A DNA stretch of 40,153 nt, taken from sequence record OZ335957.1; one strand, given 5' to 3'. Shown piece after piece: positions 1-39,017 of this stretch (position 1 is its first letter; each line of letters opens with the position of its first letter). The notes beneath the pieces are model-generated. The model did not search any database and was not told the origin of the DNA. It saw only the letters and a program-made list of their open reading frames with translations. Source of the DNA: a phage. The translations under genes and the position numbers were made by a program.

Positions 1-1764
1 TTGAGTAAAGATTTAGTGGCTCGTCAGGCGCTAATGACTGCCCGTATGAAGGCAGACTTCGTGTTCTTCCTGTTCGTCCTGTGGAAAGCTCTGTCACTAC
101 CAGTCCCGACTCGATGTCAGATTGACATGGCGAAGAAACTATCGGCTGGGGACAACAGGCGTTTCATCCTACAGGCGTTCCGTGGTATCGGGAAGTCATT
201 CATTACGTGCGCATTCGTGGTATGGAAACTGTGGAACAACCCAGACTTGAAGTTCATGATTGTGTCGGCCTCAAAGGAACGAGCCGATGCAAACTCCATC
301 TTCATCAAGCGAATCATCGACCTCATGCCTCAGCTTCGGGAACTCAAACCTAAGCAGGGGCAGCGAGATGCGGTTATCAGCTTCGACGTTGGACCAGCCA
401 AGCCAGACCACTCACCTTCGGTTAAGTCCGTTGGTATCACTGGTCAGTTGACTGGTAGTCGTGCTGACATCCTGATTGCCGATGACGTGGAGGTTCCGAA
501 CAACTCAGCGACTCAGGCTGCCCGAGACCGTCTGTCAGAGCTTGTGAAAGAGTTCGACGCTATCCTGAAGCCGGGAGGTACAATCATCTATCTGGGTACT
601 CCTCAGAACGAGATGACCTTGTATCGTGAGCTGGAAGGCCGTGGGTACACCACTACTATCTGGCCTGCTCGTTATCCACGCGACAGGAAGGACTGGCAGT
701 CTTACGGCGACCGTCTGGCTCCAATGCTTCAGGCAGAGCTTGAAGAGGACCCTGAGTCATTCTACTGGCGTCCGACTGATGAAGTACGCTTCGATGATAC
801 GGACCTTAAGGAACGTGAGCTGTCATATGGTAAGGCTGGCTTCGCTCTACAGTTCATGCTTAACCCGAACCTGAGTGATGCCGAGAAGTACCCACTGAAG
901 CTCCGTGACCTTATCGTAGCGGACTTGGACCCAGCGTCCAGCCCAATGGTCTACCAATGGTTACCGAACCCTCAGAACAAGCGTGAGGACGTTCCTAACG
1001 TTGGACTCATGGGTGACTCGTACCACACGTATCAGACTGTAGGTTCTGCCTTCAGCTCATACACCCAGAAGATTCTGGTCATTGACCCTAGTGGTCGTGG
1101 TAAGGATGAAACTGGCTATGCGGTACTGTATCAGCTTAATGGCTACATCTTCGCTATGGAAGTTGGTGGTATGCGTGGTGGTTATGAAGACTCTACGCTT
1201 GAAGCACTGGCTAAGATTGGTCGTAAGTGGAAGGTCAACGAATACGTCATTGAGGGTAACTTCGGTGATGGTATGTACCTTGAGCTATTCAAGCCTGTAG
1301 CGGCCCGTATCCATCCTGCGGCTGTAACTGAAGTGAAGAGTAAGGGTCAGAAAGAACTCCGCATCTGTGACGTTCTGGAGCCTATCATGGGATCTCACCG
1401 ACTTATCGTTAACGCTGCTGCTATCGTCCAAGACTACCAGTCGGCCTCTGATAAGGATGGTGTTCGTAACCCTATCTACTCTCTCTTCTACCAGATGACA
1501 CGTATCTCTCGTGAACGTGGAGCCTTGGCACACGATGACCGACTTGATGCGCTGGCTATCGGTGTACAGTTCTTCGTTGAGTCTATGGCTAAGGATGCCA
1601 ACAAGGGCGAACGTGAAGTAACTGAGGAGTGGCTGGAGGAGCAGATGGAGAACCCACGGAAAGGCTTCGAGTCCATCCACACTGAGTTCTGGGACAATGG
1701 GGTCCGGGTAACTCATAATACTGACGACGAGCTGGGACTAGGGTCCTACGTTACGTTCCACTAG
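1..1764 (+). CDS. 19: Terminase large subunit (T7 gp19-like), apparently full length with TTG as first codon at window position 1
   Basis: 587-aa ORF collinear with T7 gp19 (586 aa): [13 protein letters not shown], [60 protein letters not shown] motifs. Confidence 0.9.
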
Positions 1765-11065: not shown

Positions 11066-11758
11066 ATGGCTAAAGAGCAACTGAAGACTTTCACCACTCC
11101 GGTAGCTGGTATCGTTGAGCCTTACGCATGGCTGAACAAAGCAGACACCAAGTTTAACGAGCGTGGTGAGCATAAGGTTAACCTGACATTCGACCTGAAC
11201 GACCAGAAGGTCCGTAAGATGATTGATGTCTTACAGAAGATTCACGACGATGCGTATGCGAAAGCACTTGCAGACCACGAGAAGAACCCACCTCAGGTTC
11301 AGCGTGGCAAGAAGCCTATTGAACCACGAGAAGGCGACATGCCGTGGATTGAGAATGGTGACGGTACTGTTACCATGAAGTTTAAATGCTTCGCGTCTTA
11401 CCTGAAGGATGGTAAGTCAGAGCCTATCGTATTACGGTTCTACGACACCGATGCTAAGTTAATCCGTGACGTCCCGAATATCGGCGCTGGCTCAAAGCTG
11501 AAGGTCAAGTTTAAAGTCCTGCCGTTCAAGTGGAACGCTGCGACTGGTGCAAGCGTTAAGCTACAGCTTGAGTCATGCCTTCTGGTAGAACTGAAGGAGT
11601 GGAAAGGTGATGGTGGCGATGGTGGCTGGGGTGAGGATGAAGACCTCGGTACTGGTTACAAAGCGTCAACTGATGGTGACTTCGGGTCTGATGACTTCGG
11701 TGACGATGGTTCCGAAGGTGGTGACGACTCTGGCTCTGGTGGCGATTACGACTTCTAA
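11066..11758 (+). CDS. 2.5: Single-stranded DNA-binding protein (T7 gp2.5-like)
   Basis: 230 aa, Gly/Asp-rich acidic tail ending DYDF as in T7 gp2.5. Confidence 0.92.
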   Translation: MAKEQLKTFTTPVAGIVEPYAWLNKADTKFNERGEHKVNLTFDLNDQKVRKMIDVLQKIHDDAYAKALADHEKNPPQVQRGKKPIEPREGDMPWIENGDGTVTMKFKCFASYLKDGKSEPIVLRFYDTDAKLIRDVPNIGAGSKLKVKFKVLPFKWNAATGASVKLQLESCLLVELKEWKGDGGDGGWGEDEDLGTGYKASTDGDFGSDDFGDDGSEGGDDSGSGGDYDF

Positions 11759-12210
11759 TGGCCCAATGGTCTGCAAAACGGGGGCACTCTGTGGGTGCCT
11801 ACCGCTCTGGACTTGAAGCCAAGAACCAGCAGTGGCTGGAACAGAACGGCGTCAAAGCGGAGTACGAAAGCCATTATATCAACTATGTGATTCCGGCTTC
11901 CGACCACAAGTACACACCAGATTTTATCCTTCCCAACGGTATCATCGTGGAGACCAAAGGTATCTTCGATAGTGATGACCGTAAGAAGCACCTTCTGGTA
12001 CGAGAACAGCACCCAGAGTTAGACATCCGGTTCGTGTTCTCAAGTTCCCGCTCCAAGTTATACAAAGGGTCTCCGACCACGTATGGCGCATGGTGCGAAA
12101 AGAACGGCTTTAAATTTGCCGATAAATTCATCCCGGTTGAGTGGCTGCGAGAGGCGACTGTACGTCTGCCTTCAGGTATACTCATCCCCAAGAAGAAAGG
12201 AGTTAAGTGA
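11758..12210 (+). CDS. 3: Endonuclease I, Holliday-junction resolvase (T7 gp3-like)
   Basis: YVIPASDHKYTPDF, ETKG, DDRKKHLLVREQHPELDIRFVFSSSRSKLYKGSPTTYG matches T7 endo I. Confidence 0.93.
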   Translation: MAQWSAKRGHSVGAYRSGLEAKNQQWLEQNGVKAEYESHYINYVIPASDHKYTPDFILPNGIIVETKGIFDSDDRKKHLLVREQHPELDIRFVFSSSRSKLYKGSPTTYGAWCEKNGFKFADKFIPVEWLREATVRLPSGILIPKKKGVK

Positions 12211-12665
12211 TGACTACCTGTAAAGACCTTGAAGTTGGAACACGTTACAGATTCTCAAAGAACACCCTGTTGAATAACCCCAGCTTCACTGATGCTGTTT
12301 TCGAAAAGCGAGAAGACCATAGCGTAATTGTGGAGAAGGGGTGGCATCCTGAGGATTATATCGGTGAGACTACCAGCTGGAATGGTCACGAGACCTACAG
12401 TGTAGAAGTTGTTGACCAGCCTCAAGTCCTGCCAGCTTCGAGCGTACCTCCTGTGACTGTGAAGCGTGAAGTCCTGACAATCGACAAGATTGGTGTAGGC
12501 CAGACGTTCATCGTCCATGGAAAGCCTGAAGAAGTTTACGTGAAGATTAGCAACTCACACGTCTTCAACCATAAGCGTCTCCAGATGCACACCACGGACG
12601 CACAACGCTTCACCCAGCACCTGAATCTAGTGGTCGTAGAATTGGTGGTGTACAATGGTAAGTAA
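12207..12665 (+). CDS. Hypothetical protein (152 aa) inserted between endonuclease I and lysozyme genes
   Basis: ORF coupled to both neighbours (overlapping start/stop); no T7 counterpart at this position; no motif recognised. Confidence 0.6.
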   Translation: MMTTCKDLEVGTRYRFSKNTLLNNPSFTDAVFEKREDHSVIVEKGWHPEDYIGETTSWNGHETYSVEVVDQPQVLPASSVPPVTVKREVLTIDKIGVGQTFIVHGKPEEVYVKISNSHVFNHKRLQMHTTDAQRFTQHLNLVVVELVVYNGK

Positions 12666-13113
12666 GGTACAGTTCAACCCACGGTCCCGGACTGACGCTA
12701 TCTTCGTTCACTGTTCGGCTACCAAGCCAGAGATGGACATCGGGGTAGAGACCATCCGTATGTGGCACAAGCAGCAAGGCTGGCTGGACGTAGGCTACCA
12801 CTTTATCATCAAGCGCGATGGTACTGTGGAAGAGGGTCGCCCGGTAAACGTCGTAGGGTCACACGTTAAGGACTGGAACTCACGGTCTGTAGGCGTCTGC
12901 CTTGTAGGTGGAATTGACGCTAAGGGCAAGTTTGAAGCTAACTTCACTCCTGACCAGATGAACTCCCTACGCAACAAGCTGGCTGACCTGAAGTCCCTGT
13001 ATCCTCAGGCAGAAATCAAAGCACATCATGATGTAGCACCAAAGGCGTGTCCAAGTTTCGACTTACAGCGCTGGCTGTCTATTAATGAGCTGGTCACTTC
13101 CGACCACGGTTAA
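12655..13113 (+). CDS. 3.5: Lysozyme / N-acetylmuramoyl-L-alanine amidase (T7 gp3.5-like)
   Basis: DAIFVHCSATKP, WLDVGYHFIIKRDGTVEEGR, HHDVAPKACPSFDL, NELVTSD match T7 lysozyme. Confidence 0.95.
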   Translation: MVSKVQFNPRSRTDAIFVHCSATKPEMDIGVETIRMWHKQQGWLDVGYHFIIKRDGTVEEGRPVNVVGSHVKDWNSRSVGVCLVGGIDAKGKFEANFTPDQMNSLRNKLADLKSLYPQAEIKAHHDVAPKACPSFDLQRWLSINELVTSDHG

Positions 13114-28528: not shown

Positions 28529-28999
28529 ATGTATATTCGCAAGGCTACGGAACCAGATGTCCACTACTTTCTGTGGCATCTTTCAGCAGATGATGTTAAT
28601 GAGTGCAAAGCAAACTATGGGTCAACCGTTGGTATCTCTGAAAGACTGCTTAAGCACCTATCTCCGTCATCTGTGGTTTTAACGAACGGTGTAGGCGAAG
28701 TGTTTGCCTATGGTGGAAACCAAGGGGATAACGTATGGTTCTTGACTTCCGGTCTTGTCTATAAGCTGAGACCTAAAGAGAAGCGAGAGTTCATGAAGCG
28801 TATCTCTGAGTACAGGGACTTAATGTTAGACCAATACGGGACCATCTGGAACTACGTGTGGTCAGGCAATAAGTCTCACATTAAATTCTTGAAGTTGCTT
28901 GGGGCTAAATTCCATGATGATTGGACTGTAAGCCCAGTAACTGGTGAGCGTTTTCAACTATTCACTATCTCTAAGGAGGACGTATGTGCGAGCCAGTAA
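28529..28999 (+). CDS. 13: Internal virion / head assembly protein (gp13 position)
   Basis: 156 aa; synteny between tail tube B and gp14; RBS AAGGAG. Confidence 0.7.
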   Translation: MYIRKATEPDVHYFLWHLSADDVNECKANYGSTVGISERLLKHLSPSSVVLTNGVGEVFAYGGNQGDNVWFLTSGLVYKLRPKEKREFMKRISEYRDLMLDQYGTIWNYVWSGNKSHIKFLKLLGAKFHDDWTVSPVTGERFQLFTISKEDVCASQ

Positions 29000-29571
29000 G
29001 TATCGGCATGGGTATTATGGCTGTAGCTGGTGCCACTATGTCCGCATCACAACAGGCCAAGGCTGAAGGAGCAGCAATTGACGCTCAGAACCGTCAGGCT
29101 CAGGAGATGGTTAAGCAGATGAACTACTCTGACGCCAACCTGAGGATGCAGGAGCGAGACCTGAAGGAGCAGCAGATGGCTGAACTGACAGAGACCACTC
29201 TAAACGGTATCCGCAATCAGGGTATGGTACGAGCTGCGGTGGCTGAGTCAGGTCTGGAGGGTAACTCTATGGACAGGATTGAACGTCAGGTCGCAGGAGA
29301 TACCGTCAAGGAGCGAGCAGGGATTACCGAAAGCTACAACCGTGACTATGCGGCTATCTTCGGGAACCGTATCGCCAACATTGAGAATACCAAGTCTGCT
29401 ATCCGTGGTCAGGGTAAAATCATCAAGACCAGCCCACTGGCTCATGCACTTAATGTTGCTAACGCCGGGATGCAGGGGTACGCTGCTGGTAAGTCAATAT
29501 CTGGGGCATCAAGCTCTGGTGGTGCTGCACCGATTAGTGCTGCTAAAGGCACACCTACAAGTCATAGCTAA
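28984..29571 (+). CDS. 14: Internal virion protein B (T7 gp14-like)
   Basis: 195 aa; QQAKAEG...Q.....NYSDANL....R..L.E..........GSMDRI pattern matches T7 gp14. Confidence 0.9.
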   Translation: MCEPVSIGMGIMAVAGATMSASQQAKAEGAAIDAQNRQAQEMVKQMNYSDANLRMQERDLKEQQMAELTETTLNGIRNQGMVRAAVAESGLEGNSMDRIERQVAGDTVKERAGITESYNRDYAAIFGNRIANIENTKSAIRGQGKIIKTSPLAHALNVANAGMQGYAAGKSISGASSSGGAAPISAAKGTPTSHS

Positions 29572-29582
29572 GAGGAGGACTA

Positions 29583-31865
29583 ATGGCTAGTAATATTGAA
29601 TCAGCTCTGGCTAATCGGACTATGGGTCGTGGCAGAGCGCCGGGTAAAACCATCGCCGTCAACTATCAAGCAGCCAGCGTTCAGGCTCCGACTGGTGACT
29701 CCGGTCTTGCTCGTGCGTTAACCAACTTCGTTGAGTCTGGGACTGGATTGTACAAGCAGTTCAAGGACGAGGAGAAGACCAGAGCTGACGAGCGGTCTAA
29801 CGAGATTATCCGTAAGCTGACACCTCAGCAAAGACGTGAGGCTATCCAGAACGGCACATTGCTGTATCAGGATGACCCTTACGCTATGGAAGCACTTCGA
29901 GTCAAGACAGGTCGTAACGCTGCCTTTGCGGTGGATGACGAGATTAACGTTAAGATTCAGAACGGTGAGTTCCGTACACGTCAGGACATGGAAGAGTATC
30001 GACACCAGCGACTTCAGGACGCCGCTAAGTCCTATGCTGAAGAGGCGGGTATTAACCCTACAGACGAGTTCTTCCAGCGTGGGTTCAACGATAACATCAC
30101 AGACCGCAACATCGCTATCTATGGGTCTTTCAATAAGTATTTCAGTAAGCAGTCTGAAGAGACAGCAATGTTGAATACTCGTATTGAGATGAACTCATTC
30201 CTGAACGATGGCGACCTGATGCGTTCACCTGAGTCTGGCAAGACCTTCATGGCCTACCTTCGTGATGGACTAACTACTGCTGCTATCCCTTCGGACCAGC
30301 GAGCACGGGAGGTAATTACCCAGACGGTCCGTGACGCAATCCAGAAGTCAGGCGGCTCCAACTTCCTACAGCAAGTACGAGGCGAGCGAATCACCCTTAA
30401 CGGTGTGGATGCTACAGTCGAAGAGATTGTAGGACCTGATGTCTTCAACGCTGCTATTGTTGAGGCGCAAGGAACTGAGTACAAGCTGGTGGCTAAGTAT
30501 CAGGAAGACTTATCGTTAGGCGTTCAGTCTGCGATTCTTCAGGACGACCCAACCATCGGTCTGGCCCAGATTCAGAAACTCAAGGAGCAGAACAACCTGC
30601 TTCAGCCGGGTGAAGAACTCACTCCTCAGCGTCAGATGCTTATTAATGCCGAAGCCAGCTTACTGGAAGCGGTCAAGCGTAAGTCCGCTGAACAGGCGAA
30701 GGAGAACACTACGTTAATCCAGACTCAGAACAAGCAACTGGTCATCGACCAAGTGTATCAGCGACGTCTGGCTGGGGACAACGTGTCCACCAACTATGAG
30801 GACCTTCCGGTATCAGATGCTACAGGCGAGTTCAAGCGTTCGGACATGAACAACTATGCGTCTGCCAAGCTACAGCAGATTGACCAGATGGACATCCCTG
30901 AGGCTGCTAAAGACGCACAGAAGGTGGCATTGTTAAGGGCTGACACTAACAATGGTCCGTTCCGTAATGCCTTCCAGACGCTGACTCAGGACGCTGCTAG
31001 CGAGTGGCAAGCTGCGGTCATCCGTGGGCAGTACGACCCAGACAAGATGCAACGCTTCGAGTCTCTTCGTCGTGCCTACACTCAGGACCCTTCAAGTTTT
31101 GCTGCTCTATATCCTGACCAATCTCAGTTGTTCTCTACGTTCGACCAGATGGACAAGATGGGTCTGGACCCTCAGACGATGATTGAAGCTGATAAGCAAG
31201 CTGCAAGTCAAAGCCGTGAGATGCGCATGGAGTCAGACAAGGCGTGGCAGGAGTTGAAGAACGACTCTCGGAATAAGGACCTTTCGCGTCTTCCTACGTC
31301 TCTGGACTCAAGTGCTCGTAAGGTCTGGGACTCATGGTACTATCGTACAGGTAACGCTGACGCTGCAACGCAGCAGACTCAACGCTGGCTGAATGAGAAC
31401 ACCGTAACGTTCCAATCTGAAGGTTCGGACGGTAAGTCCATCGGCATGGTGTCCAAACACCAGCTTATGGTCGGGGATAACCCAGAGTCGTGGCAGGTGG
31501 GTCGAGACATTATCGACACAGCTCGTCAGCAGCTCATTAAGGCCCACCCTTGGGTAGTGAACTCTCAGTTGTCCGTTGTTGAACAGAACGGCTCTATCTT
31601 CCTCCAAGACGCTACGGGGACTATTCGTATTCGCTACGATAAAGAACTTGTAGGTAAACTCTACCGCGAACAACAGCAGAAGGCACAAGATGCCGCATAT
31701 GCTCAGGCAGAACGTGACGCTAACAAGCGAGCGCGTATCGTCGGGACTAAAGCTGCTGGTGACAAACGTCGAGCTGACCGAGAGGCCAACATCGAGAAGC
31801 GTGGTGGGATGTACAATGACGTCTCACTGGAGGGTATCGCAAACGTACTAATCGGTAAGGAGTAA
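29583..31865 (+). CDS. 15: Internal virion (core) protein C (T7 gp15-like)
   Basis: 760 aa; ADERSNEIIRKLTPQQRREAIQNGTLLYQDDPYAMEALRVKTGRNAA nearly identical to T7 gp15 segment. Confidence 0.92.
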   Translation: MASNIESALANRTMGRGRAPGKTIAVNYQAASVQAPTGDSGLARALTNFVESGTGLYKQFKDEEKTRADERSNEIIRKLTPQQRREAIQNGTLLYQDDPYAMEALRVKTGRNAAFAVDDEINVKIQNGEFRTRQDMEEYRHQRLQDAAKSYAEEAGINPTDEFFQRGFNDNITDRNIAIYGSFNKYFSKQSEETAMLNTRIEMNSFLNDGDLMRSPESGKTFMAYLRDGLTTAAIPSDQRAREVITQTVRDAIQKSGGSNFLQQVRGERITLNGVDATVEEIVGPDVFNAAIVEAQGTEYKLVAKYQEDLSLGVQSAILQDDPTIGLAQIQKLKEQNNLLQPGEELTPQRQMLINAEASLLEAVKRKSAEQAKENTTLIQTQNKQLVIDQVYQRRLAGDNVSTNYEDLPVSDATGEFKRSDMNNYASAKLQQIDQMDIPEAAKDAQKVALLRADTNNGPFRNAFQTLTQDAASEWQAAVIRGQYDPDKMQRFESLRRAYTQDPSSFAALYPDQSQLFSTFDQMDKMGLDPQTMIEADKQAASQSREMRMESDKAWQELKNDSRNKDLSRLPTSLDSSARKVWDSWYYRTGNADAATQQTQRWLNENTVTFQSEGSDGKSIGMVSKHQLMVGDNPESWQVGRDIIDTARQQLIKAHPWVVNSQLSVVEQNGSIFLQDATGTIRIRYDKELVGKLYREQQQKAQDAAYAQAERDANKRARIVGTKAAGDKRRADREANIEKRGGMYNDVSLEGIANVLIGKE

Positions 31866-31869
31866 CATA

Positions 31870-34800
31870 ATGGCGACTCGTGGTATTCGCAATAACAATC
31901 CGGGTAACATCCGGGTAAGTAAGGACAAATGGGAAGGAATGACTGGAGATGATGGCGCATTCGTCACCTTCGATAGTCCAGAGTCTGGCGTCCGAGCTTT
32001 AGGTAAAAACCTGCTGTCCTACGGTCGCCAAGGTTATGACTCCATCGAGAAGATTATAAACCGATGGGCACCTCCTAACGAGAACGACACTAAGGCTTAT
32101 ATCGACTCAGTGGTGGCTGCAACTGGTATTCCAGCTACCCAGAGTCTCGACCTATCGGACCCTGACACCCTGTCTTCTCTTGCTCAAGCTATCAGCTTCC
32201 ATGAGACAGGCTCCCGGTACGACCCTGAAGTCTATCAGAAGGGAGTCGCACGAGCACTCAATGGCATTAGCCCAAAGACTCCACCAGTAAGCGCTAACGT
32301 ATTTGACGCACTCACGGAAGGACTCAAGGCTAAACCTAAAGTAGCTCTGGGCGAGAACCTTCCGACCGCTGCTGGTCTAAACATTGAGGGTCAAGCACCT
32401 GAAGCTCCCAACGAATCGTTCGGTGAGATGTTCTATAAGTCTACTGGCGAGACCATGCAGGAACGAGAGGATCGCTCTACGTGGTTCGGTTTCGGCTCGG
32501 CTACAGAAGCTGAAGTGAAGAACTCTATGGTCGGCGTGGCTATCCGCGCTGGTCAGACCGAGGACTCACTTGATGTCATTGGCGATGTGTTCAACCCTAC
32601 CCGCTGGAACAACCATAAGTGGACTCGTGAAGAGCTTGACCAGATTCGTAACGCTGGGGTTCTGCCTCAGTATTACGGAGTAATTACTGGCGGTTCTCCT
32701 CAGAATCTGACAGAGCTGATCAACTTGGCGTTGGAGAACCAGAAGTTGGACCAAGAGAAGGCCAAGGCTGGGACTGGTGCTAAGTTAGCTGCTGGTGTGA
32801 TTGGCGCTGGTGTGGATCCTCTGACCTACGTTCCTATAGCTGGACAGATTGGTAAGGGTGGCAAGCTGGTCAACAAGATGTTCACCGTGGCTGCTCAATC
32901 TGGAGCACTTGCTGGTGTATCAGAGATGTCCCGTACCTCAGTGGCTGGTGGTGATGCTCATGTGGCTGAGGCTATCCTTGGCGGTGCTCTCTTCGGCGGA
33001 GGTATGACTGCTATCGCTGATGGTTTAGGCAGAGCCTTAGGTCGCAACACTAATGAGTTCGCTGGCCCAGCTACACGTCTGGAAGCTCGTGAGACCGCTC
33101 GTAACATTGATGGTCAGGACCTGTCTCGTCTCCCTATTCAGGAAGGTGAGCAGACCTTTAGTCATCAAGGCGTTAAGTTCGCCGACGTTCCGAATGAGCC
33201 TGGTAGTGTGCGGCTGGAGGATGGTTCAATCCTGATTGGTGAGAACCCTCTGAACCCTAAGACACGTAAGGTCTTTGACGAAGTGATTGAGCCTGAACGG
33301 GCCGCTGCTGGTGTGAACCTTGGTGGTCTGACTGAGATTGGCCTGAAGCTGCTTCGGTCTGAGAACCCTGAGATTCGTGGAGTAGCTGCTGACTTAGTGC
33401 GTTCACCGACTGGTATGCAGTCTGGGGCCTCAGGTAAAATCGGGACCACTGCGTCTGACGTATTCGAGAGACTTCGTGCTGTGGACCATCGGTTCTACAA
33501 TGACATCGACGATGCGGTTACTGAGGCCCTAAAGGACCCGTACTTCCAGACAGCATTCTGGCGAGACTCTGGAGCATTCCGTCAGGACATCTACCAGCGT
33601 GTGTCTATGGCTATCGAAGATGGTAGCGGAAACCTGAAGGCTGAACTGACTCCGGGAGAACTGAAAGTCTATGACCTGCTGAAGAACCAGTTTGACGCCA
33701 AGCGTGAGATGATGGAGAACCCGGCTATGTTTGGTCGTCCAGACGCTCAGTCTATCTTTCCGGGCAGCCGCTTCAAGGGAACCTACGTCCCGCATGTGTA
33801 TAGCAACCAGATGAAGGAGCTGTACATCAAGGAGCTTGGGAGTCCAGAGGCACTACAGGAGGCCATCAAGAAGTCATGGTTGACCAGCTATGCGTCTCGA
33901 CCTGAGGTCAAGAAACGTGTGGACGAGGCACTCTTAGAGGCTGACCCTACGTTGACTCCAGAAGGACTTGCGGCTGCGGTCGATAAGTACGCCAACGATA
34001 AGGCTTATGGTATCTCTCACACCGAGCAGTTCGAGCGTTCATCCGTAATGGAAGAGAACATCAATGGTCTGGTGGGTCTGGAGAACAACAGCTTCCTTGA
34101 GGCTCGTAACCTGTTCGATAGCGATATGTCAATCGTCCTACCTAACGGTCAGACCTTCAGTGTCAACAACCTGCGTGAGTGGGACATGGACAAGATTGTC
34201 CCGGCCTACAACCGTCGAGTTAATGGCGATATTGCTATCATGGCTGGTACAGGCAAGACCACGAAGGACATGAAGGACTTGGTTGAGACCATGATGAACA
34301 AGGCTGGGGATGACGGTAAGTTGAAAGGTGAAGTATCTACCTTACGTGACACCTTGAAGATTCTAACTGGTCGTGCTCGACGTGATGGTGCTGATGATGC
34401 AGCCTTCGCTACCGTGATGCGCACAATGACAGACCTATCGTTCTTCGCTAAGAATGCCTACATGGGTGTTCAGAACTTAACGGAGATTGGTGGAATGCTG
34501 GCTCGTGGCAACGTTCGTGCAATGCTGCATGGAGTCCCAATTTTCCGTGACCTAGCCTTCCGTAACAAGAAGGTTGGGGCCTCAGAGATTAAGGACCTGC
34601 ACAATGTTATCTTCGGTAAGGAACTGGATGACTCAATCCGTCCGTCTAAACAGGATGTCATTGACCGTCTGCGATCTTACAGTGACCTCGGTCGTGGTAC
34701 AGCTACAGCTCTGGGGACTGCCAAGTATTACACTGGCGAACTTGCAGTACGCTCTCCGTTCACTAAAGTCCTCAACGGTACGACCAACTACCTGTTAGAT

Positions 34801-35757
34801 GCTGGACGTCAAGGCTTCCTGTCTGACATCGTGGAGCATAGCCTGACTGGTAGTAAGCGTAAGTTCGATGACCGCTGGCTTAAGACCGCTGGTATCTCTG
34901 ACGAGCAGTGGAAGGGCATTAAGTCCCTCATCCGTGAGTCAGTGACGCGTGGTCCAGACGGGAAGTACACCATCAAGGATAAGAAGGCGTTCAGTCAGGA
35001 CCCAAGGGCTATGGACCTCTGGCGTATGGGTGACACCATCGCTGATGAGACACTGCTCCGTCCCCACAAGCTGAGCAACATGGACGCCAAGGCTTATGGT
35101 CCTCTCGCTAAGACTGTCCTTCAGTTTAAGAACTTCGTTATCAAGTCTATCAACGGTCGAACCATGCGTACCTTCTACAACGCCACCAAGAACAACCGAG
35201 CTATTGATGCTGCACTGTCCACGGTTATGTCTATGGGTCTGGCTGGGATGTACTACATGGCTCAGGCGCACATCAAGGCTTACGCTATGCAGGACGGTCG
35301 TGACCGTGAGTACCTGAAGCAAGCCCTGAACCCGACGATGATTGGCTATGCGGCCCTGTCCCGTAGTTCACATCTAGGTGGACCACTTGGGGTCGCTAAC
35401 ATTCTTGGTGGTATCGCTGGGTATGAGGACACTAAGATGCTCCGTTCGTCTATCCTCCCGCGTTCACCTACAGAGAAGCCCGAACGTGCCATCTCATATG
35501 GTGCGGCTACAAGTGACCCTGTGATGAATGTCGTTGGTAACTTCTTGGAGCAGGTCCCGGCTTTCGGCTATGCTGCTAACGTTGGCGCTTCGGCATACAA
35601 CTTGGCTGGCTACCTCAAGGCTGATACCCGTGTCAACGAGCGAGACTACATGACCGGGATGTATAACACGTTCCGTGAACTTGTACCGAATGACCCGATT
35701 ACCCAGAAGTTGCTGCTTGGGACGTTTGAGGAGCAAGGCATCCACATCAAGGACTAA
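31870..35757 (+). CDS. 16: Internal virion protein D (T7 gp16-like) with divergent N-terminal domain
   Basis: 1295 aa; body collinear with T7 gp16 (PTRWN, VDPLTYVP, RLEARETARN, DLVRSPTGMQSGASGK, VPNDP.TQ); N-terminal 190 aa lack the T7 transglycosylase signature. Confidence 0.93.
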   Translation: MATRGIRNNNPGNIRVSKDKWEGMTGDDGAFVTFDSPESGVRALGKNLLSYGRQGYDSIEKIINRWAPPNENDTKAYIDSVVAATGIPATQSLDLSDPDTLSSLAQAISFHETGSRYDPEVYQKGVARALNGISPKTPPVSANVFDALTEGLKAKPKVALGENLPTAAGLNIEGQAPEAPNESFGEMFYKSTGETMQEREDRSTWFGFGSATEAEVKNSMVGVAIRAGQTEDSLDVIGDVFNPTRWNNHKWTREELDQIRNAGVLPQYYGVITGGSPQNLTELINLALENQKLDQEKAKAGTGAKLAAGVIGAGVDPLTYVPIAGQIGKGGKLVNKMFTVAAQSGALAGVSEMSRTSVAGGDAHVAEAILGGALFGGGMTAIADGLGRALGRNTNEFAGPATRLEARETARNIDGQDLSRLPIQEGEQTFSHQGVKFADVPNEPGSVRLEDGSILIGENPLNPKTRKVFDEVIEPERAAAGVNLGGLTEIGLKLLRSENPEIRGVAADLVRSPTGMQSGASGKIGTTASDVFERLRAVDHRFYNDIDDAVTEALKDPYFQTAFWRDSGAFRQDIYQRVSMAIEDGSGNLKAELTPGELKVYDLLKNQFDAKREMMENPAMFGRPDAQSIFPGSRFKGTYVPHVYSNQMKELYIKELGSPEALQEAIKKSWLTSYASRPEVKKRVDEALLEADPTLTPEGLAAAVDKYANDKAYGISHTEQFERSSVMEENINGLVGLENNSFLEARNLFDSDMSIVLPNGQTFSVNNLREWDMDKIVPAYNRRVNGDIAIMAGTGKTTKDMKDLVETMMNKAGDDGKLKGEVSTLRDTLKILTGRARRDGADDAAFATVMRTMTDLSFFAKNAYMGVQNLTEIGGMLARGNVRAMLHGVPIFRDLAFRNKKVGASEIKDLHNVIFGKELDDSIRPSKQDVIDRLRSYSDLGRGTATALGTAKYYTGELAVRSPFTKVLNGTTNYLLDAGRQGFLSDIVEHSLTGSKRKFDDRWLKTAGISDEQWKGIKSLIRESVTRGPDGKYTIKDKKAFSQDPRAMDLWRMGDTIADETLLRPHKLSNMDAKAYGPLAKTVLQFKNFVIKSINGRTMRTFYNATKNNRAIDAALSTVMSMGLAGMYYMAQAHIKAYAMQDGRDREYLKQALNPTMIGYAALSRSSHLGGPLGVANILGGIAGYEDTKMLRSSILPRSPTEKPERAISYGAATSDPVMNVVGNFLEQVPAFGYAANVGASAYNLAGYLKADTRVNERDYMTGMYNTFRELVPNDPITQKLLLGTFEEQGIHIKD

Positions 35758-35822: not shown

Positions 35823-38800
35823 ATGTCCACGATTACACAATTCCCTTCAGGAAACACTCAGTACAGGATTGAGTTCGACTACCTAGCCAGAACGTTTGTT
35901 GTTGTTACGCTGGTGAATAACTCTAACCCTACCCTGAACCGTGTACTGGAAGTTGGTCGAGATTATCGATTCCTTAATCCAACGATGATTGAGATGTTGG
36001 TTGACCAATCAGGTTTCGACATCGTTCGCATTCACCGTCAGACTGGAACTGACTTAGTGGTAGACTTCAGGAATGGCTCAGTGTTGACGGCTAGTGACCT
36101 GACAAATTCAGAGCTTCAGGCTATCCATATTGCAGAAGAAGGTCGAGACCAAACGGTTGACTTAGCGAAGGAATATGCCGATGCTGCTGGTAGCTCTGCT
36201 GGCAACGCTAAGGATAGCGAGGACGAAGCACGCCGAATCGCTGAGAGTATCAGGGAAGCTGGTCTAATTGGCTATATGACCCGTCGCTCCTTCGAGAAAG
36301 GCTACAACGTTACAACATGGAGCGAGGTCCTGCTATGGGAAGAGGATGGTGATTATTACCGCTGGGATGGTACGCTTCCAAAGAACGTTCCTGCTGGTTC
36401 AACTCCTGAAACTTCCGGTGGGATTGGATTAGGTGCGTGGGTTAGTGTTGGTGATGCTGCTTTAAGAAGTCAGATTTCAAACCCGGAAGGGGCAATACTC
36501 TACCCTGAATTACATAGAGCACGCTGGCTTGATGAAAATGATGTTCGTGGTTGGGGTGCTAAAGGGGATGGTGTCACTGATGATACAGCAGCGTTAACGA
36601 GCGCATTAAACGACATACCGGTTGGACAAAAGATTAATGGCAATGGGAAGACATATAAGGTCACATCCCTGCCTGACATTAGTCGCTTCATCAACACTCG
36701 TTTCGTTTATGAGCGCATTCCCGGACAACCTCTTTATTATGCCTCTGAAGAATTTGTTCAGGGTGAGTTGTTCAAAATAACGGACACCCCTTATTACAAT
36801 GCGTGGCCTCAGGATAAAGCGTTCGTATATGATAATGTGATATATGCACCTTACATGGGTAGCGATCGTCATGGTGTTAGTCGTCTGCATGTGTCATGGG
36901 TTAAGTCTGGTGATGATGGTCAAACATGGTCTACTCCAGAGTGGCTAACTGATCTGCATCCAGATTACCCTACAGTGAACTATCACTGTATGAGTATGGG
37001 TGTATGTCGCAACCGTCTGTTTGCCATGATTGAAACACGTACTTTAGCCAATAACGCATTAACCAATTGTGCATTGTGGGATCGCCCCATGTCTCGTAGC
37101 CTGCATCTTACTGGTGGTATCACTAAAGCTGCAAATCAGCGATATGCAACAATACATGTACCAGACCACGGACTATTCGTGGGTGATTTTGTTAACTTCT
37201 CTAATTCTGCGGTAACAGGTGTATCCGGTGATATGACTGTTGCAACCGTAATAGATAAGGACAACTTCACGGTTCTTACACCCAACCAGCAGACTTCAGA
37301 TTTGAATAACGCTGGAAAGAATTGGCACATGGGTACTTCTTTCCATAAGTCTCCATGGCGTAAGACAGACCTTGGTCTAATCCCTCGTGTCACAGAGGTG
37401 CATAGCTTTGCTACTATTGATAACAATGGCTTTGTTATGGGCTATCATCAAGGCGATGTAGCTCCACGCGAAGTTGGGCTTTTCTACTTCCCTGATGCTT
37501 TCAATAGCCCATCTAGTTATGTTCGTCGTCAGATACCATCTGAGTATGAACCAGATGCGTCAGAGCCGTGCATCAAGTACTATGACGGTGTATTATACCT
37601 TATCACTCGTGGCACTCGTGGGGATAGACTAGGTAGCTCTTTGCATCGTAGTAGAGACATAGGTCAGACTTGGGAGTCACTGAGATTTCCACATAATGTT
37701 CATCATACTACATTACCTTTTGCTAAAGTAGGGGATGACCTTATTATGTTTGGTTCAGAACGTGCAGAAAATGAATGGGAAGCAGGTGCACCAGATGATA
37801 GGTACAAGGCATCTTATCCTCGCACCTTCTATGCACGCTTGAATGTAAACAATTGGAATGCAGATGATATTGAATGGGTTAACATCACTGACCAGATTTA
37901 TCAGGGCGGAATAGTTAACTCAGGTGTAGGTGTTGGTTCGGTAGTTGTGAAGGATAATTACATCTACTACATGTTTGGTGGAGAGGACCATTTTAACCCA
38001 TGGACATATGGAGATAACTCAGCGAGGGACCCATTCAAATCAGATGGTCATCCCTCAGATTTGTATTGCTACAAAATGAAGATTGGCCCAAGCAATCATG
38101 TTTCCCGTGATTTCAGGTATGGTGCTGTACCTAACAGAGCTGTTCCCGTGTTTTTTGATACGAATGGGATTCGCACTGTTCCTGCGCCAATGGAATTTAC
38201 AGGGGATTTGGGTTTAGGTCATGTGACCATTAGAGCCAGCACCAGTAGTAACATTCGCTCTGAAGTTTTAATGGAAGGTGAATATGGGTTTATCGGGAAA
38301 TCTATACCGACTGATAACCCGGCAGGGCAGCGCACCATATTTTGCGGGGGTGAAGGCACCAGTTCAACGACTGGCGCACAGATTACGCTTCATGGTGCAA
38401 ATAGCACCGACTCAAGGCGAATAGTTTACAATGGTGATGAGCATCTGTTCCAGACTGCTGACGTTAAGCCTTATCACGATAACGTCACTGCGCTTGGTGG
38501 ACCACGTAACCGTTTCACAACTGCATATCTCGGAAGCAACCCTATTGTTACTTCTAATGGGGAGAGGAAAACAGAGCCGGTAGTTTTTGATGATGCTTTC
38601 CTAGATGCCTGGGATGACGTTCACTACATCATGTATCAATGGTTAGACGCTGTTCAACTGAAAGGCAATGATGCTCGTATTCACTTCGGGGTTATTGCTC
38701 AGCAAATTCGTGATGTATTCATTGCACACGGTCTGATGGATGAAAACAGTACGAATTGTCGTTATGCAGTTCTGTGCTATGACAAGTATCCACGGATGAC

Positions 38801-39017
38801 TGATACGGTATTTTCGCACTATGAAATCATTGAACACACTGACGAGGAGGGTAATGTCACTACTACGGAAGAGCCTGTATTCACTGAGGTGGTTATCCAT
38901 GAAGAGGGTGAGGAGTGGGGTGTTCGGCCTGACGGAATTTTCTTTGCTGAAGCCGCTTATCAGAGAAGAAAACTGAAAAGAATCGAAGCCAGACTTTCTG
39001 CTCTTGAACAGAAGTAA
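35823..39017 (+). CDS. 17: Tailspike endosialidase (endo-N-acetylneuraminidase) with T7 gp17-like N-terminal adaptor and C-terminal intramolecular chaperone domain
   Basis: 1064 aa; N-terminus FDYLARTFVVVTL like T7 gp17; Asp boxes SGDDGQTW (36906-36929) and SRDIGQTW (37650-37673); C-terminal 153 aa after Ser911 with S74-type chaperone motifs. Confidence 0.93.
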   Translation: MSTITQFPSGNTQYRIEFDYLARTFVVVTLVNNSNPTLNRVLEVGRDYRFLNPTMIEMLVDQSGFDIVRIHRQTGTDLVVDFRNGSVLTASDLTNSELQAIHIAEEGRDQTVDLAKEYADAAGSSAGNAKDSEDEARRIAESIREAGLIGYMTRRSFEKGYNVTTWSEVLLWEEDGDYYRWDGTLPKNVPAGSTPETSGGIGLGAWVSVGDAALRSQISNPEGAILYPELHRARWLDENDVRGWGAKGDGVTDDTAALTSALNDIPVGQKINGNGKTYKVTSLPDISRFINTRFVYERIPGQPLYYASEEFVQGELFKITDTPYYNAWPQDKAFVYDNVIYAPYMGSDRHGVSRLHVSWVKSGDDGQTWSTPEWLTDLHPDYPTVNYHCMSMGVCRNRLFAMIETRTLANNALTNCALWDRPMSRSLHLTGGITKAANQRYATIHVPDHGLFVGDFVNFSNSAVTGVSGDMTVATVIDKDNFTVLTPNQQTSDLNNAGKNWHMGTSFHKSPWRKTDLGLIPRVTEVHSFATIDNNGFVMGYHQGDVAPREVGLFYFPDAFNSPSSYVRRQIPSEYEPDASEPCIKYYDGVLYLITRGTRGDRLGSSLHRSRDIGQTWESLRFPHNVHHTTLPFAKVGDDLIMFGSERAENEWEAGAPDDRYKASYPRTFYARLNVNNWNADDIEWVNITDQIYQGGIVNSGVGVGSVVVKDNYIYYMFGGEDHFNPWTYGDNSARDPFKSDGHPSDLYCYKMKIGPSNHVSRDFRYGAVPNRAVPVFFDTNGIRTVPAPMEFTGDLGLGHVTIRASTSSNIRSEVLMEGEYGFIGKSIPTDNPAGQRTIFCGGEGTSSTTGAQITLHGANSTDSRRIVYNGDEHLFQTADVKPYHDNVTALGGPRNRFTTAYLGSNPIVTSNGERKTEPVVFDDAFLDAWDDVHYIMYQWLDAVQLKGNDARIHFGVIAQQIRDVFIAHGLMDENSTNCRYAVLCYDKYPRMTDTVFSHYEIIEHTDEEGNVTTTEEPVFTEVVIHEEGEEWGVRPDGIFFAEAAYQRRKLKRIEARLSALEQK

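Follow-up and report, generated by a model that had tools for sequence, protein, structure and literature searches.

Evidence for an Enc34 endolysin-family domain at the N-terminus of gp16 in a K1F-like phage

The internal virion protein gp16 of phages T7 and T3 begins with an SLT lytic-transglycosylase domain (GH23, PF01464, catalytic residue E37; PDB 7K5C, 7EYB, 6YT5). In T7 this domain makes up the 'wings' that face outward on the periplasmic tunnel, its activity is required with highly cross-linked peptidoglycan, and amino acids (aa) 157-228 of the protein bind gp15 as a 'molecular tape' (PMC8954989). It is established that podovirus ejection proteins exchange muralytic domains in a mosaic manner (PMC4819975, PMC8954989, bioRxiv 10.64898/2026.05.18.726046). 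Another family of cell-wall enzymes, PHA02564 of NCBI, includes the ORF39 endolysin of Hafnia phage Enc34 (PDB 7Q47) and M4Lys of Salmonella phage BSPM4. According to Cernooka et al. (PMC8943055) the family is all-helical and related to the lysozyme α-lobe in permuted form, and three residues of Enc34 are important for catalysis: Trp79, Tyr95 and Glu131, the last being the catalytic one. This work concerns gene 16 of sequence record OZ335957.1, a stretch of 40,153 nucleotides (nt; hereafter the window), which is the complete, circularly permuted genome of a K1F-like phage of the genus Kayfunavirus. We put the probability at about 0.85 that the N-terminus of its gp16 is an Enc34-endolysin/PHA02564-family domain, which sits in the slot of the T7 SLT domain and probably cuts peptidoglycan locally at ejection.

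The N-terminal domain and its relation to Enc34 and T7

In a phmmer search of all PDB sequences, residues 3-123 of gp16 matched the Enc34 endolysin (7q47_A, E=2.6e-15), and 51 of the 117 aligned residues were identical (44%). The same module is common to PHROGs 873, 992, 2276, 7182 and 1044. An AlphaFold2 model of the domain, made from an alignment of 62 sequences, had a mean predicted local distance difference test (pLDDT) score of 91.2; the predicted fold was all-helical and like the lysozyme α-lobe, as in 7Q47, and 7Q47 was top-ranked by Foldseek (template modelling score 0.75, E=1.7e-9). The predicted globular domain stopped at aa 131, and pLDDT was 63-68 over aa 131-150. The Enc34/PHA02564 family has no model in Pfam or NCBIfam, it was therefore identified via the PDB sequence search, PHROGs and the fold search.

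The motif GIRNNNPGNIR, which an earlier note made from the sequence of the window had singled out, is indeed present at aa 5-15 and is conserved among the 62 aligned homologues, where it is the most conserved stretch of the family: residues R4 to G12 are conserved in at least 90% of the sequences, and N8, N10, N13, I14 and R15 are invariant. The Enc34 version of the motif is PRGIRNNNPGNIE. Judged from the alignment, the motif is not a chance feature. The three residues named for Enc34 also have counterparts in gp16. W66, Y77 and E112 align with chain positions 80, 96 and 132 of the Enc34 structure, i.e. with Trp79, Tyr95 and Glu131 at a constant offset of +1. E112 and Y77 are kept in all gp16-borne copies that we examined, those of phages K1F, HHH, STP-SP6 and Bp-AMP3 and of two metagenomic representatives (P0133 and P0154). 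The earlier note had suggested that a different module, cell-wall-active or binding, was joined to the conserved gp16 core. The T7-like core and the non-SLT N-terminal domain support this suggestion, and because E112, Y77 and W66 are conserved, the module looks catalytic and not merely binding.

The 1295-aa product opens with MATRGIRNNNPGNIR, and the N-terminal sequence of the open reading frame (ORF), MATRGIRNNNPGNIRVSKDKWEGMTGDDGAFVTFDSPESGVRALG, agrees with the start quoted in the earlier note. That the body of the protein is collinear with T7 gp16 was confirmed by BLASTP: aa 125-1295 aligned to aa 152-1315 of T7 gp16 (NC_001604) in a single alignment with 53.6% identity (E=0), phmmer gave the same limits with the T7 gp16 chains 7eyb, 7k5c and 6yt5, and the homology of the body is also seen in the assignment to PHROG 342 (E=0). 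Calculated in 40-aa windows, identity to T7 was 0.28-0.30 over aa 121-200 and climbed to 0.5-0.75 past aa 200. Between the N-terminal domain and the conserved body there is a linker (aa 132-206), a low-identity homologue of the T7 molecular tape, and the junction of the swap falls where in T7 the wing domain (aa 1-156) gives way to the tape (aa 157-228). The claim that the N-terminus differs from that of T7 proved correct, but not over the first 190 residues (31870-32440), as had been proposed; the module ends at approximately aa 131 (31870-32262), because T7 and T3 can be aligned again from about aa 125-132 onwards and the globular part of the model stops at aa 131.

Several searches were made for an SLT domain in this part of the protein. 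The first 200 aa of the window gp16 compared by BLASTP with the first 200 aa of T7 gp16 yielded only fragments with E>3. Pfam scans detected the SLT family PF01464 at aa 15-127 of the positive controls T7 gp16 (E=1.7e-31) and T3 gp16 (E=4.5e-31), and found no Pfam family in the window gp16 at E<=1 or in K1F gp16 at E<=0.001; the GH73 glucosaminidase family PF01832 was likewise not matched in the window gp16. NCBIfam gave no match to the window gp16 (with both libraries the whole protein and aa 1-200 were scanned). Nor was there a GH23 fold, in which the catalytic Glu (E37 of T7, in the sequence WTESRF) lies close to the N-terminal end. When the profile of the N-terminal domain and 61 homologues was compared with that of the SLT-type N-termini of gp16-family proteins, hhalign returned a probability of 4.3% over 38 aligned columns. 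The canonical SLT domain which would have spoken against the earlier note was thus absent in the Pfam and hhalign comparisons, and alignment of the gp16 proteins showed that K1F shares the N-terminus of the window protein and that T7 and T3 do not, so the note was right about the T7 sequence.

The non-significant hhalign alignment (window aa 66-116, 32065..32217) sets E112 exactly on the catalytic E37 of T7. This placement agrees with the proposal that Enc34 and GH23 are related by circular permutation.

It is instructive to compare the window protein with the described systems. In T7 and T3 the SLT domain occupies the same slot of the same protein in the same operon, and a homologous linker and body come next in both cases. 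The two kinds of domain presumably do the same job, which is to breach peptidoglycan for the periplasmic tunnel, and are similar in size (about 131 aa in the window gp16, about 156 aa in T7), but they have no sequence, profile or Pfam likeness, and the window domain has another helix order with the Glu near its C-terminal end. The chemistry at the bond probably differs as well, being hydrolytic (glucosaminidase) in the window protein and non-hydrolytic (transglycosylase) in T7. Unlike the Enc34 and M4Lys endolysins of the same family, the domain is here the N-terminus of a 1295-aa ejected core protein, and presumably acts from outside at entry, not at lysis. Essentially the same protein is present in E. 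coli phage E1004 as Gp29 (PDB 9VVP, 'Core proteins of the bacteriophage E1004', released 2025-11-12); the window gp16 differs from E1004 Gp29 and from K1F gp16 by strain-level substitutions only.

Proposed role and alternative explanations

The 9vvp chain, a core protein of phage E1004, matched gp16 closely over its full length (aa 1-1295, phmmer), and by analogy with this near-identical chain gp16 is probably a capsid-core/ejection protein. Cells of E. coli, P. aeruginosa and H. alvei with a permeabilised outer membrane are lysed by Enc34 ORF39ΔC (PMC8943055), and with M4LysΔTMD a loss of N-acetylglucosamine (GlcNAc) from muropeptides was seen by high-performance liquid chromatography-mass spectrometry (HPLC-MS), which suggests a glucosaminidase (PMC7143992). 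Within the genus the ratio of nonsynonymous to synonymous substitution rates (dN/dS) of the N-terminal domain was 0.07-0.14, similar to that of the gp16 body (0.06-0.10), values which indicate that the gp16-borne domain is under purifying selection and which speak for a functional copy. By analogy with T7, the most likely function of the domain is to cut peptidoglycan locally while the genome is ejected. At infection gp16 would leave the capsid core via the portal and the tail, and the N-terminal domain would then cleave the glycan strands of peptidoglycan locally with E112 as the catalytic acid, W66 and Y77 probably helping to position the substrate. Through the resulting hole the periplasmic tunnel of gp15 and gp16 could assemble across the peptidoglycan, with the linker (aa 132-206) taping gp15 together and the conserved gp16 body entering the inner membrane.

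Some points weigh against this picture. The muralytic activity of gp16-borne copies is extrapolated from free-standing relatives. The HPLC-MS study of M4Lys, which is the sole basis of the bond specificity of the family, suggested endopeptidase activity too (PMC7143992). The catalytic Glu of Enc34 was assigned by superposition, and the available part of that paper reports no mutagenesis that we could find (PMC8943055). The evidence for the fold is a prediction, and the 9vvp model overlaps the N-terminal domain over only 83 alignment columns in Foldseek. Some T7-like gp16 proteins have no N-terminal muralytic domain, therefore the domain may be conditionally dispensable.

As to the bond that is cut, the comparison with Enc34 and M4Lys suggests that the gp16 domain is probably a glycosidase of the hydrolytic N-acetylglucosaminidase type rather than a lytic transglycosylase. 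We regard it as unlikely that it is a lytic transglycosylase or muramidase, which would cut the bond between N-acetylmuramic acid and GlcNAc like T7 gp16, only on another scaffold. The GenBank names 'peptidoglycan lytic exotransglycosylase' and 'peptidoglycan transglycosylase' agree with such an activity, but the names were evidently carried over from T7 (the RefSeq note on K1F gp16 quotes T7). In favour of such an activity, the Glu/Tyr/aromatic signature of the Enc34-type enzymes is common to GH23 (lytic transglycosylases and lysozymes) and GH73 (PMC8943055); the single evident catalytic Glu is as in GH23 lytic transglycosylases, and the best local alignment by hhalign, non-significant as it is, pairs this residue with E37. 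A figure legend in the M4Lys paper says 'N-acetylmuramidase', therefore the assignment as glucosaminidase is not clean, but the HPLC-MS text of the same paper gives GlcNAc as the sugar lost (PMC7143992). In structure Enc34 comes closest to the GH73 glucosaminidase TM0633; Cernooka et al. conclude that it is a β-N-acetylglucosaminidase, and they argue for a GH73-like mechanism from structure only (PMC8943055).

Two further explanations question the nature of the domain itself. It is very improbable that it has no catalytic function and only positions the ejectosome, as a peptidoglycan-binding or purely structural 'wing'. The existence of gp16 proteins without the domain would be compatible with this, but free-standing enzymes and gp16 fusions alike have an invariant Glu and Tyr and a nearly invariant Trp, purifying selection on the domain is strong, and 44% identity over the aligned residues connects it to an active enzyme, Enc34. 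We give practically no credence to the idea that the N-terminus is an SLT domain which diverged very far by vertical descent and was never replaced. The Enc34-type, GH23 and GH73 enzymes may have a very remote common ancestry (PMC8943055), and hhalign did align the Glu-bearing helices. Vertical divergence is however difficult to reconcile with a body that is 54% identical to T7 and yet is joined to an N-terminal domain without detectable similarity, the latter being 39-56% identical to hundreds of free-standing proteins of 130-220 aa and 44% identical to Enc34. Compared with GH23, the helices come in a permuted order: in the Enc34 type the fifth helix carries the catalytic Glu, and the GH23 and GH73 homologues bear it on the helix before the counterpart of α2 (PMC8943055). 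The bodies of the Kayfunavirus proteins moreover nest among SLT-type gp16 proteins in a neighbour-joining tree. A replacement of the SLT domain by an Enc34-type enzyme remains the reading that we prefer.

Distribution and history of the domain

K1F gp16 (YP_338126) is 97% identical to the window gp16 over the first 250 aa. At an identity of at least 60%, the N-terminal domain was present in about 224 records of the phage collection, and the T7 SLT domain in about 850; the carriers of the former that we inspected, STP-SP6, HHH and CR44b, have it in gp16 genes of T7-like phages of roughly 39 kb. The gp16 family was scanned as the 150 listed representatives of clusters formed at 50% identity. About 55 of these 150 start with SLT, and only two, P0133 and P0154, have the Enc34-type start; both lie in T7-like gp13-gp14-gp15-gp16 operons on metagenomic contigs. 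In two distant gp16-family proteins this N-terminal slot was taken by other enzymes, Phage_lysozyme2 (PF18013, E=1.1e-27) at aa 3-131 of P0198 and GH73 Glucosaminidase (PF01832, E=7.9e-07) at aa 45-159 of P0260. The slot is thus used by at least four enzyme families (SLT, Enc34-type, Phage_lysozyme2 and GH73), and in some phages by none.

Representatives without an N-terminal domain include P0124, a gp16 of 1108 aa on the contig of a T7-like phage (L008 3560-6886). We considered whether such short proteins of about 1100 aa could be truncated gene calls and rejected this for P0124: only 68 nt separate gp15 from gp16 on that contig, therefore the domain is genuinely absent there. The internal virion proteins of SHAK7163 and SHAK7704 are similarly short (1106 and 1102 aa; PMC12031403).

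The Enc34-type domain also occurs in other proteins. Outside gp16 it was found in endolysins of chi-like siphoviruses, in an ε15/phiV10 ejection protein, in tape-measure and 'head' proteins, in Mu-like Pseudomonas phages, in NO16/PM2-like phages with membrane-containing virions, and in many free-standing proteins of 130-220 aa, a few of which are named 'structural protein' by their sources. As a virion-borne module the family is also seen in the gp18-type 'head protein' of ε15/phiV10, in the Mu-like Pseudomonas phages JBD5 and MP48, in GP11 of Vibrio phage NO16, in P5 of the corticovirus PM2 and in a gp16-like protein of Bp-AMP3, but in these the carrier and the position are different and identity is 37-54%; the domain is internal in phiV10, and free-standing or in a membrane-containing virion in NO16 and the PM2-like phages. 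The protein of Bp-AMP3, a Burkholderia phage of another subfamily, the Okabevirinae, is a 'putative transglycosylase' of 1665 aa (L004 4941-9938) with the Enc34-type domain at its start (43% identity, Glu and Tyr conserved); its body had no BLASTP-detectable similarity to the body of the window gp16 and no Pfam match. The same principle, a mobile muralytic cassette in the ejectosome, is seen in gp42 of the phiKMV-like phage Ar-KM and in gp15-like proteins of SP6 and K1-5 (PMC8954989; bioRxiv 10.64898/2026.05.18.726046). There a T4-lysozyme-like domain has moved to the gp15-like tunnel protein, to its C-terminus or middle, whereas the window gp16 keeps the slot and differs only in the family of the enzyme.

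In the neighbour-joining tree of gp16 bodies, which is without support values, the Kayfunavirus clade falls among the SLT-type proteins. This is a weak indication that the Enc34-type gp16 arose by replacement of an ancestral SLT domain, possibly more than once. Nucleotide identity profiles against Enterobacter phage HHH and Salmonella phage STP-SP6 revealed no sharp recombination boundary at the edge of the domain within the genus, therefore the swap must be older than the diversification of the genus. The profiles showed patchy mosaicism throughout gp15 and gp16, and the possibility that the module is still swapped as a discrete unit among Kayfunaviruses was rejected on these grounds. In comparison with the same two phages the synonymous divergence (dS) of the N-terminal domain was about 1.1 and that of the gp16 body 0.54-0.74, and protein identity was 78-82% for the domain and 89-95% for the body. 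The comparison of these sequences suggests a patchy recombination history of the domain rather than clean cassette exchange within the genus.

Genomic setting, annotation and significance

The closest nucleotide matches of the window were Escherichia phages PhiNW-B1, LNA3 and vB_EcoP_F, with 94-97% identity. The gene order is of the T7 type, gp13-gp14-gp15-gp16 being followed by a tailspike with a T7 tail-fibre N-domain, and an identical gp13-gp17 order is found in T7, K1F and STP-SP6 (Table 1). The stop codon of gp15 is TAA (31863-31865). The tailspike is a K1F-type endosialidase, therefore the phage is K1-capsule-specific. It also has a separate amidase, gp3.5, for lysis, therefore the N-terminal domain of gp16 need not serve as lysis endolysin.

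Table 1. Position of gene 16, its parts and other genes in the window
Feature	Coordinates	Strand	Basis or remark
gp16 / internal virion protein D (ejectosome inner-membrane component)	31870..35757	+	ORF list, 1295 aa, coordinates with stop codon; PHROG 342, E=0
Probable Enc34-type (PHA02564 / 'structural protein P5') muralytic domain, the swapped module, aa 1-131	31870..32262	+	
GIRNNNPGNIR motif, family hallmark, aa 5-15	31882..31914	+	columns R4-R15 invariant or at least 90% conserved
W66, equivalent of Enc34 Trp79	32065..32067	+	HMMER alignment; at least 90% conserved in 62 homologues
Y77, equivalent of Enc34 Tyr95	32098..32100	+	HMMER alignment; invariant in 62 homologues and all gp16-borne copies examined
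E112 (in FHETGS), equivalent of Enc34 catalytic Glu131	32203..32205	+	HMMER alignment; invariant in 62 homologues
Linker, aa 132-206	32263..32487	+	low-identity homologue of T7 gp16 aa 157-228 (aligned with T7 and T3)
Conserved T7-like gp16 body, aa 207-1295	32488..35754	+	identity to T7 0.38-0.75 in 40-aa windows
Shine-Dalgarno sequence AAGGAG of gene 16	31857..31862	+	read from sequence; 7 nt 5' of ATG
gp15 homologue (periplasmic tunnel protein), gp16 partner, 760-aa ORF	29583..31865	+	synteny gp13-gp14-gp15-gp16-gp17
gp14 homologue (outer-membrane pore component of ejectosome)	28984..29571	+	Pfam PF24072 T7_gp14, E=6.5e-46
gp13	28529..28999		PF11090
Tailspike, K1F-type endosialidase	35823..39017		PF12217, PF12219, PF12195, PF12218; fused to T7 tail-fibre N-domain and S74 chaperone
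T7-type amidase gp3.5	12655..13113		PF01510
T7-type terminase large subunit, start of window	1..1764		

Two observations on other genes of the window may be added. In hmmscan the gp15 homologue had no Pfam match, and neither had gp15 of the P0154 lineage (L009 3401-5923). For homologues on metagenomic contigs, PF26212 (Phage_T7_Gp15) is listed. The missing match may reflect the version of the library or real divergence. Between the genes for endonuclease I (11758..12210) and the gp3.5 amidase there is an ORF of 152 aa with a GTG start (12207..12665, + strand) and no Pfam match.

In GenBank the Kayfunavirus protein goes under product names as varied as 'peptidoglycan lytic exotransglycosylase', 'endo-type membrane-bound chitopentaose' and 'hypothetical protein'. 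As far as can be judged from sequence, the protein is probably mis-annotated, the transglycosylase name borrowed from T7 not being backed by its N-terminus. For the 1295-aa proteins of LNA3, LNA5 and the SHAK phages a 2025 review could recognise no domain (PMC12031403), a gap which the Enc34/PHA02564 assignment fills. In the searchable literature, to which the K1F genome and E1004 structure papers do not belong, we found no explicit statement of an Enc34-type domain in Kayfunavirus gp16, nor a paper joining 'Enc34' with 'internal virion protein'. The practical outcome of this work is a correction of annotation. Therapy-oriented engineering makes use of K1F-like phages, and enzybiotics are under development from Enc34-type domains; the gp16 domain would be a compact virion-borne variant of about 131 aa with a complete active site.

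To find a known enzyme family in a known cassette position amounts to an ordinary module swap; the feature is widespread among sequenced phages and will not surprise the specialist. One might speculate that the change from a lytic transglycosylase to a hydrolytic Enc34-type glucosaminidase was adaptive and not neutral, and that it affects which hosts can be infected or under what conditions; we think this rather improbable. If true, the new domain could breach walls resistant to SLT enzymes, evade periplasmic inhibitors of lysozyme or transglycosylase, or avoid 1,6-anhydro-muropeptide signals at entry, and the N-terminal cassette of gp16 would be a freely exchangeable determinant of host range or condition range. 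A cassette slot at the N-terminus of gp16 agrees with what has been published on mosaic ejection proteins and adds to it.

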